Positions 3,713 through 6,110 of a stretch of DNA of 64,000 bases are shown piece by piece. The position numbers and the translations under genes were made by a program. The stretch is taken from sequence record NC_014662.1; one strand, given 5' to 3'. The DNA is from Enterobacter phage CC31. Position 1 is the first letter of the stretch; each line of letters begins with the position of its first letter. The notes beneath the pieces are model-generated. The model did no database searches. It worked only from the letters and a program-made list of their open reading frames with translations, and had not been told where the DNA came from.

Positions 3713-4630
3713 TCATTTGAACGGACGAATCATATCAAAGTTTTGTTTAAAGCGTTTGACATAATCTGTCTTTCCAAGTTTCTTATGCATTGCAACTATC
3801 TTATGGTAGTTTTCCCATGCATATTCACGAAACCAGCCAGATGTAATGCTAGTACAAACTTTTTCCAAAGCGTACATAAATGAACCCGTAGGGTCTGGGT
3901 TGAAATTATTTGGAATTTGATGGCGTTCTAAAGCAAGTACACAAGTTTCTTCATATACACCTGCAAGCTTAAGTTCTTCAGGAAGAGAATCGAACTTCTC
4001 TTTTGAAGTCATTACTTCAGAGCCATCTTTCATGTAGAAAGTATAAGCAGGACGACCAGCTAAAGCCACTGCTTCATGAATTGAATCGTGGTCATAGATG
4101 TAAAAATCATCTTTAAAGAAAGAATCTTTATCTACATCCAGATTAGGATGAGAATATGCTAATGTTTCTTTCTGGCGCAGTTCAGAAATCTTTTTCAGTT
4201 TACTGTCTAAAACAATTCCTTTATTACGCAAGAAACGAATATGATGCATAGTCTTTTGAAAGAAACGAGTGTTCTTCTTGAAACGATGAGACATCTTAAT
4301 TGCTAAGCACATCTCAGGAGTTGCCCAATACATCTGTGAAAGCGCATCATAGCACCCATTAAATACTGCGTAGTGAGCAAGCAGTTCAGATGAACTCTCG
4401 TCGTTATATTCAAAAATGTATGCTTCAAAATAGGTCTCACGACCATTATGCATGCATTTAAAGGCTTGTACATTAGGAGATTGAACTTCGACCTCTGTAC
4501 CATTCATACGGTTTTTGAAATGGAGCCATTCGCCCGGAGACGCGATGAAGTCCCAATCAGAATTCTTAACATCACTGTACTCAATGAGTCCATGGTGATG
4601 TAGAGCTCTAGAACCAATAACCAGCAACAT
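3713..4630 (-). CDS. Hypothetical protein, 305 aa
   Basis: Long ORF; N-terminal VIGSRALHHHG...SDWD loosely resembles a nucleotidyltransferase motif but spacing is non-canonical; C-terminal NFDMIRPFK tail. Confidence 0.5.
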   Translation of the reverse strand: MLLVIGSRALHHHGLIEYSDVKNSDWDFIASPGEWLHFKNRMNGTEVEVQSPNVQAFKCMHNGRETYFEAYIFEYNDESSSELLAHYAVFNGCYDALSQMYWATPEMCLAIKMSHRFKKNTRFFQKTMHHIRFLRNKGIVLDSKLKKISELRQKETLAYSHPNLDVDKDSFFKDDFYIYDHDSIHEAVALAGRPAYTFYMKDGSEVMTSKEKFDSLPEELKLAGVYEETCVLALERHQIPNNFNPDPTGSFMYALEKVCTSITSGWFREYAWENYHKIVAMHKKLGKTDYVKRFKQNFDMIRPFK

Positions 4631-4659
4631 AATATTTTCCTCTTTAGAATGTAGAACTA

Positions 4660-5001
4660 CTATAACACACTTGACTGATGTTGTAAACGGTTCTTTCTAC
4701 ACATTCTGATGAAGTTTTCAATAGGCTCTTCTGGTCTATTGGCTGGATAGCATTTCTTCCAGTTCCACCCTCCCAGCAAGTCAAAGATTTGGTCAGGAAG
4801 AGAATCCCATGGATGTTCTCTTTCGCGGAGTTGAAGCACAATATCACCGGCTGCTTCTCTAATTCCAGTATCAAGTTTTCCATTACAAATCACGACATCC
4901 ATGAGTACTGCAAGACAACAACTATCATGGCTTCCGTATTTGTTCGGATAGTAGAAATAATGGTCAATAATGTAGCAGCAATTACGGTCTAAACCTTTCA
5001 T
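4660..5001 (-). CDS. Hypothetical Cys-rich protein
   Basis: Start chosen at MKGLDRN (ATG 5001..4999 after AGGA); C-terminal ENFIRMCRKNR tail shared with downstream genes. Confidence 0.45.
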   Translation of the reverse strand: MKGLDRNCCYIIDHYFYYPNKYGSHDSCCLAVLMDVVICNGKLDTGIREAAGDIVLQLREREHPWDSLPDQIFDLLGGWNWKKCYPANRPEEPIENFIRMCRKNRLQHQSSVL

Positions 5002-5064
5002 AGTGTTCCTCCAGTGATTCTGGGGAAACTTTTCAGTTTCCCCATATATTACCATTAACAGCTG

Positions 5065-5137
5065 CTAGTGTACCTGGACTCGAACCAGGGAATCGTAGAA
5101 TCAAAATCTACTGCCTTACCAACTTGGCTATACCCCA
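5065..5137 (-). tRNA. tRNA-Gln (UUG), no encoded CCA, acceptor mismatch
   Basis: Manual fold: anticodon arm GTAGA-TTTTGAT-TCTAC, T-arm CCTGG-TTCGAGT-CCAGG; body close to remembered E. coli tRNA-Gln. Confidence 0.7.
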
Positions 5138-5143
5138 ACTGTT

Positions 5144-5220
5144 TGGAGGCGGGTGATGGACTCGAACCATCGCGTAACGGGATATGAACCCGTCATTCTA
5201 CCAACTGAAGTTAACCCGCA
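5144..5220 (-). tRNA. tRNA-Met/Ile2 (CAU)
   Basis: Anticodon arm ACGGG-TTCATAT-CCCGT, T-arm GATGG-TTCGAGT-CCATC, encoded CCA; position 1:72 unpaired. Confidence 0.65.
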
Positions 5221-5230
5221 CTTATCCGGA

Positions 5231-5318
5231 TTCCTGAAGTACAACGGCTGCTTTATGTAGAACTCACCTATTGTGAGGGAACAAAATCACTGGTCCTGGC
5301 ATTAATTATGGACCACCA
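5231..5318 (-). ncRNA. Candidate structured small RNA within tRNA island (not a tRNA)
   Basis: Outer 9-bp stem ttcctgaag/cttcaggaa enclosing two hairpins (GGTCC..GGACC and CTCAC..GTGAG); no T-loop motif. Confidence 0.35.
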
Positions 5319-5340
5319 TCTTCAGGAACTGCCTCGTATT

Positions 5341-5416
5341 TGGCGGACCTAACGGGATTCGAACCCGTGACTCTCACGTGACAGGCGAGTATTTTCACCG
5401 CTGAAACTATAGGTCC
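5341..5416 (-). tRNA. tRNA-Asp (GUC)
   Basis: Perfect cloverleaf: acceptor GGACCTA/TAGGTCC, anticodon arm CTCGC-CTGTCAC-GTGAG, T-arm ACGGG-TTCGAAT-CCCGT, CCA encoded. Confidence 0.8.
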
Positions 5417-5658
5417 AAATTATCTTTCGTGATTATGTGAATCCCTCAGGTTTTCCGGAAAACCGAATAGGCGACAAAAGCTCTCATATACCCGTGCACA
5501 GATATAATCTTTGTTAACTAGTGTCTGAATCAGTATAATCCGAAAGATAACTTTCGGCGCCGTATTTAATTTGAGATATGTAGTTATCGTTGAGGGAACT
5601 CATATTCAGGGATTAACATGCCGACGACTTTGTCAGAACGTCTTCCAACTTCTATATT

Positions 5659-5743
5659 TGGCGGGTCGTGCAGGTATCGAACCTGCCTAGTCATTTCTGA
5701 CACGGATTAACAGTCCGCCGCTTACCCTCTCAGCCAACGACCC
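5659..5743 (-). tRNA. Type-II (long variable arm) tRNA with Asn anticodon GUU
   Basis: 85 nt; acceptor GGGTCGT/ACGACCC, 3-bp D-stem, anticodon arm GCGGA-CTGTTAA-TCCGT, 15-nt variable hairpin GTCA-GAAA-TGAC, T-arm GCAGG-TTCGATA-CCTGC, G73, CCA. Confidence 0.6.
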
Positions 5744-5748
5744 AAATT

Positions 5749-5823
5749 TGGTTCTCCGTAAGAGAATTGAACTCTTCTTTCCGACGTGAAAGGCCGGCGT
5801 CCTAACCGATAGACGAACGGAGA
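5749..5823 (-). tRNA. tRNA-Glu (UUC)
   Basis: Acceptor TCTCCGT/ACGGAGA, anticodon arm CCGGC-CTTTCAC-GTCGG, T-arm AAGAG-TTCAATT-CTCTT, CCA encoded. Confidence 0.7.
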
Positions 5824-5824
5824 T

Positions 5825-5902
5825 TGGTAGGACGTGAGGGAGTTGAACCCATCGACATTCCGATTAAAAGTCGGATGCTCTAACCAACTGAGCTAACGTC
5901 CT
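5825..5902 (-). tRNA. tRNA-Lys (UUU), weak T-stem
   Basis: Acceptor AGGACGT/ACGTCCT, D-arm GCTC-AGTTGGTTA-GAGC, anticodon arm TCCGA-CTTTTAA-TCGGA; T-stem only 3 bp. Confidence 0.65.
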
Positions 5903-5940
5903 GTAGATATTTATAATAACAAAAATATCTTTAAGCAAAT

Positions 5941-6016
5941 TGGTGGGAATAACTGGACTCGAACCAGTGACCTAACGATTATCGGTCGTTTGCTCTACCA
6001 ACTGAGCTATATTCCC
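5941..6016 (-). tRNA. tRNA-Ile (GAU), C at position 33
   Basis: Acceptor GGGAATA/TATTCCC, D-arm GCTC-AGTTGGTA-GAGC, anticodon arm AACGA-CCGATAA-TCGTT, T-arm CACTG-GTTCGAG-TCCAG, CCA. Confidence 0.7.
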
Positions 6017-6022
6017 TGAATT

Positions 6023-6110
6023 TGGTGGGGAGTGATGGAGTCGAACCACCCGAGTCGCAATGACAACAGATTTACAGTCTGCACCGCTACCTCTACGGAA
6101 TTAACTCCCC
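6023..6110 (-). tRNA. tRNA-Tyr (GUA), type II
   Basis: 88 nt; acceptor GGGGAGT/ACTCCCC; anticodon arm GCAGA-CTGTAAA-TCTGT as in remembered E. coli tRNA-Tyr; long variable arm; CCA. Confidence 0.8.

Follow-up and report, generated by a model that had tools for sequence, protein, structure and literature searches.

A putative divergent initiator-type tRNA-Met gene with a non-canonical body in the tRNA cluster of Enterobacter phage CC31

The window, the whole 64,000-nucleotide stretch of Enterobacter phage CC31 DNA (NC_014662.1) that was analysed, contains a tRNA gene with the anticodon CAU. ARAGORN called tRNA-Met(CAU) at exactly 5144-5220 on the minus strand, and the Rfam tRNA model (RF00005) matched 5148-5219 with 44.1 bits (E=1.5e-7). 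The gene spans 77 nt with an encoded CCA, and the call is backed by 226 phage homologues and by covariation in nine stem pairs. Its minus-strand sequence reads U1 GCGGGU UA ACUUCAGUUGGUAGAAU G ACGGG UUCAUAU CCCGU UACGC GAUGG UUCGAGU CCAUC ACCCGC C72 U73 CCA. U1 (5220) is unpaired with C72 (5148), and 1:72 is likewise unpaired in 11 homologues. The 5' strand of the acceptor stem, positions 2-7 (GCGGGU, 5214-5219), has its partner at 5149-5154, as placed by alignment with E. coli metZ and by the homologues. An irregular D arm, ACUUC AGUUGGUA GAAU, occupies 5195-5211 and was defined by pairing counts, covariation and folding. The anticodon stem, read from the sequence and the homologues, is formed by A27 C28 G29 G30 G31 (5189-5193) and C39 C40 C41 G42 U43 (5177-5181). 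It encloses the loop UUCAUAU (5182-5188), in which CAU lies at 5184-5186, A37 at 5183 and an unusual U38 at 5182. The T arm, GAUGG UUCGAGU CCAUC (5155-5171), is supported by covariation of 50:64 and 51:63, and C72, the discriminator U73 and the encoded CCA lie at 5144-5148. All of these elements are on the minus strand.

ARAGORN found seven minus-strand tRNAs between 5064 and 6016, including tRNA-Met(CAU). Rfam confirmed the same tRNAs and added an eighth, of Tyr type, at 6026-6110. A tRNA-Gln(UUG) called by ARAGORN (5064-5137, minus strand) is located 6 nt downstream of the tRNA-Met, and this Met-Gln pair is conserved in relatives. Pfam gave no match for the ORF that stands in place of the distal tRNAs. 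The phage is T4-like, and over the tRNA region it shares 90-96% identity with Enterobacter phage PG7 and other Karamvirus genomes. The tRNA(CAU) gene was present in 226 T4-like phage records, in which the annotated copies are all labeled tRNA-Met, some of them by tRNAscan-SE. A single well-formed CAU tRNA was seen in the window and in the clusters of most relatives. The 95-nt second 'tRNA-Met' of phage PG7 was considered as a clean elongator partner and discarded, because its anticodon stem is badly paired and it is absent from the window. A blastn comparison of the tRNA with 5,426 complete E. coli genomes returned no match even at E=10; on this evidence the gene is not a recent host capture. 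A scan of IMG/VR with the D-arm motif recovered known isolates and chance matches only, and added no further diversity.

The assignment of the 5' end determines whether the terminal mismatch is real. The Rfam alignment of the window tRNA begins one base later, at G2, and to do so it must delete position 66. We rejected this register, which is countered by covariation at 7:66 and by the CCA lying in register after U73. Among 11 aligned homologues from eight genera (Karam-, Marfa-, Moon-, Kanagawa-, Kagamiyama-, Mosuguk-, Jiaoda- and Winklervirus), compensatory acceptor changes were seen at 7:66 (U:A to G:C), 6:67 (G:C to A:U) and 5:68 (G:C to A:U). Since these three pairs covary, the acceptor stem has seven positions with the mismatch outermost. 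Five other tRNAs of the cluster apparently also encode CCA, as the ARAGORN calls end 3 bases past the Rfam hits; the CCA was read directly only for tRNA-Asp. All seven other cluster tRNAs of the window pair 1:72 in the Rfam alignments. In Aeromonas phage L9-6, the homologous U1 is paired with A72.

Pair counting over the 11 homologues showed that the cloverleaf is well preserved, with 90-95% of cells paired and compensatory changes in nine pairs. The covariation score was 0.389; shuffles gave 0.13 and slid controls 0.085 or less. Near the positions of interest, 5:68, 6:67, 7:66, 27:43, 28:42, 50:64 and 51:63 covary. The invariant stem pairs of the phage family, 2:71, 4:69, 30:40 and 31:39 together with the T-stem pairs common to all tRNAs, coincide exactly with the functional ones, and the pairs next to them show free covariation. 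Position 3:70 is C:G in 10/11. The D arm could be drawn in two ways. With four stacked pairs it contains a C11xA24 mismatch and reaches 75% pairing over the homologues; with a C bulged after A10 it forms U11:A24, U12:A23 and C13:G22 around a canonical D loop, AGUUGGUA, at 100% pairing. The folding energies of the two models were -20.0 and -19.7 kcal/mol. Position 10:25 covaries from A:U to C:G in phage IME523. An elongator-type D arm (Y11:R24, A14 R15 ... G18 G19 ... A21) fits under the bulged-C model only, and the stem is irregular in both. Judged from these conservation patterns, the tRNA(CAU) of the window is a functional, conserved and structurally constrained gene.

The preliminary description had pointed to two initiator hallmarks in this tRNA, and both were borne out. 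At 1:72, U1 and C72 form no Watson-Crick pair in the 77-nt register, and the position is unpaired in all 11 homologues (UxC in nine, AxC in two). Beside the anticodon loop, the ACGGG/CCCGU stem contains the consecutive pairs G29:C41, G30:C40 and G31:C39. The two inner pairs, 30:40 and 31:39, are G:C in 11/11 homologues and 29:41 is G:C in 9/11, being weakened to A:U in PM2 and to AxC in Gravdalen. As a bacterial reference we used an arbitrary sample of 101 CAU tRNAs from one scan of a genome collection, parsed by structure, with A38 imposed by the scan pattern. Unsupervised clustering separated this sample into three clean groups of 35 initiators, 24 elongator tRNA-Met and 42 tRNA-Ile2. A non-pairing 1:72 occurred in 34/35 initiators and in 0/66 elongators (Met and Ile2 together); all 66, the 24 Met elongators among them, pair 1:72 as G:C, G.U or A:U. 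GGG/CCC at 29-31:39-41 was found in 29/35 initiators and 0/66 elongators. The narrower combination of G30:C40 with G31:C39 was present in every sampled initiator (35/35) and in none of the 24 Met elongators. Natural initiators in the sample showed CxA, CxU, UxU, CxC or U:A at 1:72. Because UxU is among them and 7/35 have U1, a U-first pyrimidine-pyrimidine mismatch lies within the natural range.

The two hallmarks are those described in PMC7949028 as enabling bacterial initiation; according to the same paper, a 1:72 mismatch and three G:C pairs placed into elongator tRNA-Met or tRNA-Gln suffice for initiation in E. coli. Formylation is described there as being helped by G2:C71, C3:G70 and A11:U24. 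In PMC9976931 the formylase identity set comprises the unpaired 1-72 as the major element and A73, G2-C71, C3-G70 and G4-C69 as minor ones. The window tRNA has G2:C71, C3:G70 and G4:C69, the acceptor determinants of the formylase. The combination of hallmarks is more than chance, and their conservation amid covarying neighbours is the pattern that would be expected if initiator determinants were under selection.

Comparison with E. coli tRNA-fMet (metZ/metW/metV/metY) showed how far the likeness goes. Both tRNAs have the CAU anticodon, no Watson-Crick pair at 1:72, G26 and 77 nt with CCA. They also share G2:C71, C3:G70, G4:C69, G5:C68 and G6:C67 in the acceptor stem, and C28:G42 with G29-G31:C39-C41 in the anticodon stem. 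Over acceptor positions 2-6 and in the CGGG/CCCG of the anticodon stem the phage tRNA is identical to metZ, and the ungapped identity over the whole tRNA is 46/77 to metZ versus 34/77 to metT. However, E. coli tRNA-fMet has CxA at 1:72 and A73 where the window tRNA has UxC and U73, and it has C32 and A38 in place of U32 and U38. The A11:U24 pair of the initiator has no counterpart in the window tRNA, which has either C11xA24 or U11:A24 with the bulged C. Further differences from the E. coli tRNA lie in the D arm, which is irregular and elongator-like, in the variable loop (UACGC) and in the T loop (UUCGAGU).

These departures are family traits. U38 is invariant in 11/11 homologues, so that A38 is missing. 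U73 is equally invariant in the aligned homologues (as UCCA), and the window tRNA lacks A73, which is a minor determinant for MetRS. The sole copy with A73 is that of Citrobacter phage Moon, in which a 3-nt deletion creates A73 and leaves no encoded CCA. In the bacterial sample, A73 was present in 101/101 CAU tRNAs; A11:U24 was found in 35/35 initiators and C11:G24 in all elongators. The D arm and T loop of the window tRNA are elongator-like. From its sequence, the molecule can be described as a mosaic of initiator-type acceptor and anticodon stems with an elongator-type D arm and T loop. The nearest experimental analogues are the engineered elongators with transplanted initiator features from the RajBhandary and Varshney laboratories. 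As reviewed in PMC7949028, these likewise join the 1:72 mismatch and the three anticodon-stem G:C pairs to a body of elongator type, and they initiate in E. coli. They were made in the laboratory and have A73 and a regular D stem, whereas the natural phage gene has U73 and U38 and a D stem with a bulge or mismatch.

For whole-molecule scoring we built fMet, Met and Ile2 covariance models (Infernal, entropy-weighted, bulge-tolerant) from the three clusters of the sample and ran them with filters off. The window tRNA(CAU) scored 50.3 bits with fMet, 50.8 with Met and 42.9 with Ile2, a Met-minus-fMet margin of +0.5 bits. Controls separated clearly (fMet, Met and Ile2 scores in this order): 103, 74 and 63 bits for E. 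coli metZ; 55, 87 and 85 for metT; 53, 80 and 91 (90.8) for ileX; and 33, 52 and 60 (59.6) for T4 tRNA-Ile(CAU). Among other phage tRNAs, the two CAU tRNAs of Aeromonas phages, A and B, gave 63-66, 50-54 and 44-49 bits and 39, 61 and 68 bits, respectively. The tRNA of pf16 gave 80, 59 and 53, and that of JohannJBalmer, deposited as tRNA-fMet, gave 71, 50 and 40.

Within the family of 11, the fMet model was best in seven members (by 1-5 bits) and the Met model in four (by 0.5-7 bits). The members for which Met equals or exceeds fMet are the window copy, EcS1, Gravdalen and F48. The Ile2 model was lowest for the window copy and for 9/11 family members, the exceptions being EcS1 and Gravdalen, in which fMet was lowest. 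The difference between fMet and the best elongator model ranged from -7 to +5 bits in the family, from -17 to -38 bits in true elongators and from +6 to +29 bits in initiators. The elongator advantage of 17-38 bits was seen for metT, ileX, T4 tRNA-Ile and the Ile, Lys, Gln and Asp tRNAs of the window, all of them well-scoring controls paired at 1:72; for the four window tRNAs the elongator models lay 17-26 bits above fMet.

A simple pair-aware position profile trained on the 101 CAU tRNAs (99/101 correct in leave-one-out) gave 17, 35 and 25 bits for fMet, Met and Ile2, and 41, 55 and 46 once the bulge was taken out; real members reach at least 86. It thus favoured Met over fMet by 13-18 bits, and the deficit against fMet came mainly from the D arm, with smaller shares from the T arm and variable loop. 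We did not accept this result as an assignment, because the initiator profile is very tight (90% column identity) and penalises any diverged sequence. Whole-molecule scoring of the window tRNA is a tie between fMet and Met and disfavours Ile2. The covariance scoring proposed in the preliminary description gave no clear placement as elongator or Ile2 (50.3/50.8/42.9), and no clear win for the initiator either. Nor is the acceptor stem fully paired on the correct ends, and the outcome named there as refuting was thus not observed. The initiator-like reading is the best supported one, although the tRNA is not a canonical tRNA-fMet, given the missing A11:U24, A73 and A38 and the fMet score of 50.3 against 50.8 for Met.

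Related phage tRNAs help to place this family. A blastn search with E. coli metZ found similar tRNAs in 426 phage records. Among them is a tRNA of Aeromonas T4-like phages (tRNA A), which in turn matches the Marfavirus copies of the window family over positions 29-77. The Aeromonas phages L9-6, phiAS4 and B614 have two CAU tRNAs in the homologous cluster. tRNA A reads UGCGACG UA GAGG AGAGGUCGU CCUC G UCGGG CUCAUAU CCCG(G/A) AAAUC GGUGG UUCGAAU CCAUC CGUCGC(A/U) U CCA, and tRNA B reads GGCCCUG...A73 and resembles T4 tRNA-Ile and ileX. tRNA A, annotated as tRNA-Met in phage 31, L9-6, phiAS4 and B614, shares with the window family the phage family and the Asp/Gln/Met cluster neighbourhood. It also shares U1, G2, C3, G4, U8 A9, G26, CGGG/CCCG, U38, U73, the encoded CCA and the T arm G-UGG UUCGA-U CCAUC. 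It differs in keeping the initiator D stem GAGG/CCUC (A11:U24), in having U1:A72 or U1xU72, and in its clear fMet score, whereas in the window family the D arm has been replaced or has diverged and 1:72 is UxC. The Aeromonas A/B pair and the common U1, U38 and U73 indicate that T4-like phages contain two distinct CAU lineages and that the window tRNA goes with the initiator-derived one. On this sequence comparison, the window tRNA is placed in the phage initiator-like set and not in the T4 tRNA-Ile2 lineage.

Initiator-like tRNAs also occur elsewhere, in Justusliebigvirus (CxC at 1:72, U38, U73), Klebsiella T5-like phages (U:A, U73), pf16 (AxA, A73) and Vibrio phages. Those of JohannJBalmer (Escherichia), pf16 (Pseudomonas), KpGranit (Klebsiella T5-like), and PVA8 and D481 (Vibrio) resemble the window family in having a 1:72 mismatch or U:A, G2:C71 and C3:G70; U73 is also found in JohannJBalmer, KpGranit and D481, and U38 in JohannJBalmer. 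In contrast to the window family, all five keep A11:U24 and score best with fMet, while KpGranit and JohannJBalmer have lost the three G:C pairs that the window family keeps. U73 recurs in the several phage lineages sampled, through either independent origin or shared ancestry. The earlier remark that a phage-encoded initiator tRNA would be unusual was overstated, given the 426 phage records that match metZ, the JohannJBalmer gene deposited as tRNA-fMet, and the tRNA-fMet genes reported for sequenced phages (PMC7760394, PMC12429752). Such initiator-like tRNAs are common in phages and of a kind already known. What is new is the recognition that this widespread family combines both initiator hallmarks with a non-canonical body, which has U73 and U38 and lacks A11:U24.

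Our preferred interpretation, which we hold with moderate confidence, is that through this gene the phage supplies a divergent tRNA-Met of initiator type that belongs to a phage lineage. Host MetRS would charge it through the CAU anticodon. The host formyltransferase would then formylate it, the 1:72 mismatch and the pairs 2:71 to 4:69 serving as the main determinants, perhaps only partially or with reduced efficiency for lack of A11:U24 and A73. The mismatch and the formyl group would keep the tRNA from EF-Tu, and the G:C pairs would lead to its selection in the 30S P site. Phage proteins would then be started with it at AUG, and in the infected cell it would either supplement the host initiator pool or take its place. 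With its U38/U73 body, the tRNA may withstand nucleases of the host that cleave the host's own initiator. Both the partial formylation and the tolerance of nucleases are suggested because the elongator-like body, U73 and U38 are unlike the sampled initiators, whose A38 was imposed by the sampling pattern.

Two other decoding roles have to be weighed against this interpretation. The preliminary description had offered a lysidine-modified tRNA-Ile2 reading AUA instead. On that reading, C34 would become lysidine through the action of host TilS, and the tRNA would be charged with Ile and read AUA like T4 tRNA-Ile. A CAU tRNA-Ile2 is present in the homologous cluster of T4 and of Aeromonas T4-like phages, AT-rich phages use AUA, and the window tRNA shares its anticodon with T4 tRNA-Ile and E. 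coli ileX and its location in the T4-type cluster with the former. However, G1:C72, C4:G69, C5:G68, A73, A38 and C29:G41, which T4 tRNA-Ile and ileX have in common, are all missing from it. E. coli TilS depends on 4:69 and 5:68 (PMC11947777), and IleRS on A73, C4-G69 and C29-G41 (PMC9976931). The proposed check of TilS determinants came out against lysidine: ileX, T4 tRNA-Ile and Aeromonas tRNA B have C4:G69 and C5:G68, and the window tRNA has them inverted to G4:C69 and G5:C68. The host initiator has these same acceptor pairs. To our knowledge, the host initiator tRNA is not lysidinylated. A38 is a further IleRS determinant. With U73, G4:C69, G29:C41 and U38, the window tRNA lacks the IleRS determinants, and the Ile2 model scored it lowest (42.9 bits) while assigning the T4, Aeromonas tRNA B and ileX controls correctly. 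A role in reading AUA is therefore most improbable, and from the sequence the Ile2 alternative is effectively excluded. An ordinary elongator tRNA-Met for internal AUG, with the terminal mismatch and the G:C-rich stem as tolerated quirks of a fast-evolving phage tRNA, is harder to dismiss, though still unlikely. The Met model equals or beats fMet for the window copy, EcS1, Gravdalen and F48, annotated database copies are all tRNA-Met, and the D loop AGUUGGUA, the Y11:R24-type D stem (under the bulged model) and the T loop UUCGAGU are elongator-like. Yet 1:72 is paired in 66/66 sampled elongators and in the seven other cluster tRNAs and in 0/11 family members, even though the adjacent pairs covary; G30:C40 with G31:C39 is found in 0/24 sampled Met elongators; and the 17-38-bit elongator-model gap of other elongators is absent from the family. 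Work from the RajBhandary laboratory is said to have found that an unpaired 1:72 handicaps EF-Tu binding.

The remaining alternatives concern a shared role and no role in translation. In the former, the tRNA would be partly formylated, because A11:U24 and A73 are missing, and would serve initiation in its formylated state with IF2 and elongation in its unformylated state with EF-Tu, by analogy with the single mitochondrial tRNA-Met. The mosaic anatomy, the equal fMet and Met scores and its position as the sole well-formed CAU tRNA in the window and most relatives' clusters would fit. So would the statement in PMC7949028 that the formylation rate decides whether a tRNA-fMet is a strict initiator or also elongates, mitochondrial tRNA-Met being dual. 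But the host already supplies an elongator tRNA-Met, the full UxC mismatch resembles strict initiators in not being a wobble pair, and the argument is one of inference; we consider dual use at least as doubtful as pure elongation. The tRNA might also be a pseudo-tRNA in decay, or be retained for a different purpose as a decoy or processing element. This could account for the lowest Rfam score among the class I tRNAs of the cluster (44 bits), for the irregular D stem and the unusual U73, and for isotype-profile scores that all fall far short of those of real members. Such a lack of use in translation is quite improbable for a gene kept in at least eight phage genera with nine compensatory stem pairs and 95% of cells paired; its anticodon loop and encoded CCA are invariant in the 11 homologues, the signature of purifying selection on a working tRNA.

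If the tRNA is of initiator type, as we favour, U38 deserves attention. Enteric VapC toxins cut tRNA-fMet at a single bond, A38|C39, according to PMC4105405, which cites Winther and Gerdes (2011). In the phage family the base directly on the 5' side of the matching bond is U38, within an anticodon stem-loop that is near the host initiator's; that of phage CF1 differs from it only at positions 32 and 38. The substitution at the enteric VapC cleavage site suggests a candidate for nuclease evasion. Phage tRNAs have been hypothesised to evade anticodon nucleases by loop mutations, and the survey in the same paper found that phages generally avoid encoding tRNA-fMet (PMC10264068). The window family may be a hidden counter-example to this avoidance that fits the evasion hypothesis of PMC10264068. 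A bolder proposal, that the window family and its Aeromonas-phage and Justusliebigvirus relatives represent a nuclease-resistant replacement initiator tRNA, in which U73 would also change the acceptor end presented to other toxins that target initiators, is speculative and on balance rather unlikely. Were it true, the phage would keep initiating when a toxin-antitoxin or abortive-infection system of the host destroys the host initiator, the same tRNA might also serve elongation, and the idea of anticodon-nuclease evasion would be extended to initiator tRNA.

With A11:U24, A73 and A38 all missing, the family is a naturally occurring system for asking which parts of the initiator identity set can be dispensed with, and it is a testable candidate for escape from the VapC-type toxins by which the host initiator is cleaved. 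It also carries a warning for annotation, as isotype models fail to split fMet from Met for the window tRNA, and an initiator-type gene may be hidden under a plain tRNA-Met label. If the tRNA initiates, a large group of Klebsiella, Enterobacter, Citrobacter and Serratia T4-like phages, many of them candidates for phage therapy, would have their own start tRNA. This would qualify the published statement that enterobacterial phages avoid tRNA-fMet, and phage tRNA repertoires, usually explained by codon supplementation, would be read differently.

All 35 sampled bacterial initiators, the initiator cluster within a random sample of 101 bacterial CAU tRNAs, carried A73, whereas several phage initiator-like tRNAs have U73, as does the tRNA(CAU) at 5144-5220 (minus strand). 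This base recurred in T5-like Klebsiella phages, Justusliebigvirus, a Vibrio phage and Aeromonas T4-like phages (loci L139, L141, L143 and L136-L138), which are several mutually unrelated groups. Within the family of homologues of the window tRNA in T4-like phages, the member from Citrobacter phage Moon (L144, the IMG/VR copy) was short of three bases, UCC, at its 3' end, and the blastn alignment covered positions 1-73. The loss of UCC places an A directly after C72, so that this copy has A73 and its CCA is not encoded. The Moon tRNA is a natural A73 revertant. A variation of the 3' acceptor strand was seen in the initiator-like tRNAs of Vibrio phages PVA8 (L140 61-137) and D481 (L143 61-137). 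An additional A was present in this strand, and the pairing of CCCACGCA with the facing UGCGGGG leaves a bulge inside the acceptor stem.

Several bacterial loci (L033, L037, L052, L087, L106, L135 and others) contained the 3' half of a CAU tRNA, from the anticodon loop to the 3' end, without the matching 5' half, and an intact copy was often located nearby. Integration of mobile elements into tRNA genes leaves such orphan halves behind.

The spacer of 120 nt that separates tRNA-Asp from the initiator-like tRNA (5221-5340, minus strand) was predicted to adopt a multi-branch fold with a closing stem of roughly 10 bp (UUCCUGAAG / CUUCAGGAA). This fold had a minimum free energy of -31.5 kcal/mol and a z score of only -1.85. 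The final 10 nt ahead of the initiator-like tRNA (CCGGAUAAR) were kept in most homologues. Possible readings of the spacer are a degenerate tRNA and a processing element.

Two other genes of the cluster had class II features. The 85-nt tRNA at 5659-5743 (minus strand), detected by both ARAGORN and Rfam, combines discriminator G73 with anticodon GUU, which are the Asn identity elements, and in relatives it is labelled tRNA-Asx or tRNA-Asn. Its D stem has 3 bp and its variable arm is long and class II-like, unlike the normally short variable loop of bacterial tRNA-Asn. The class II tRNA at 6026-6110 (minus strand), with anticodon GUA and of Tyr type, was found by Rfam (39.1 bits); ARAGORN made no call for it, including in a run on the isolated segment. 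Its counterpart in Enterobacter phage PG7 is labelled tRNA-Tyr, and that in Cronobacter phage Pet-CM3-4 'tRNA-Pseudo-GTA'.

On the 3' side of tRNA-Gln, PG7 carries seven further tRNA genes (L001 651-1284; His, Ser, Trp, a 95-nt 'Met', Gly, Pro and Phe), whereas the window has an unrelated segment at 4500-5063 in their place. This segment holds a 131-aa ORF (4660-5055, minus strand) for which a Pfam search gave no match. The 305-aa ORF directly 3' of the tRNA cluster (3713-4630, minus strand) strongly matched DUF7277 and DUF7275 (E=3e-77). The second 'tRNA-Met' of PG7 (L001 890-984) has a perfect acceptor stem and a long extra arm, but its anticodon stem pairs badly, at 2-3 of the 5 positions. 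It is probably a pseudo-tRNA or some other element.

Together with the initiator-like CAU, the cluster at 5064-6110 (minus strand) carries anticodons for Gln (UUG), Asp (GUC), Asn (GUU), Glu (UUC), Lys (UUU), Ile (GAU) and Tyr (GUA). This set is unlike that of T4, which serves rare A-ending codons. Among the anticodon nucleases, PrrC and PARIS target tRNA-Lys, colicin E5 targets tRNA-Tyr, tRNA-Asn and tRNA-Asp, a retron-associated nuclease targets tRNA-Tyr, and VapC targets the initiator. The overlap between these known targets and the anticodon set of the cluster is striking.
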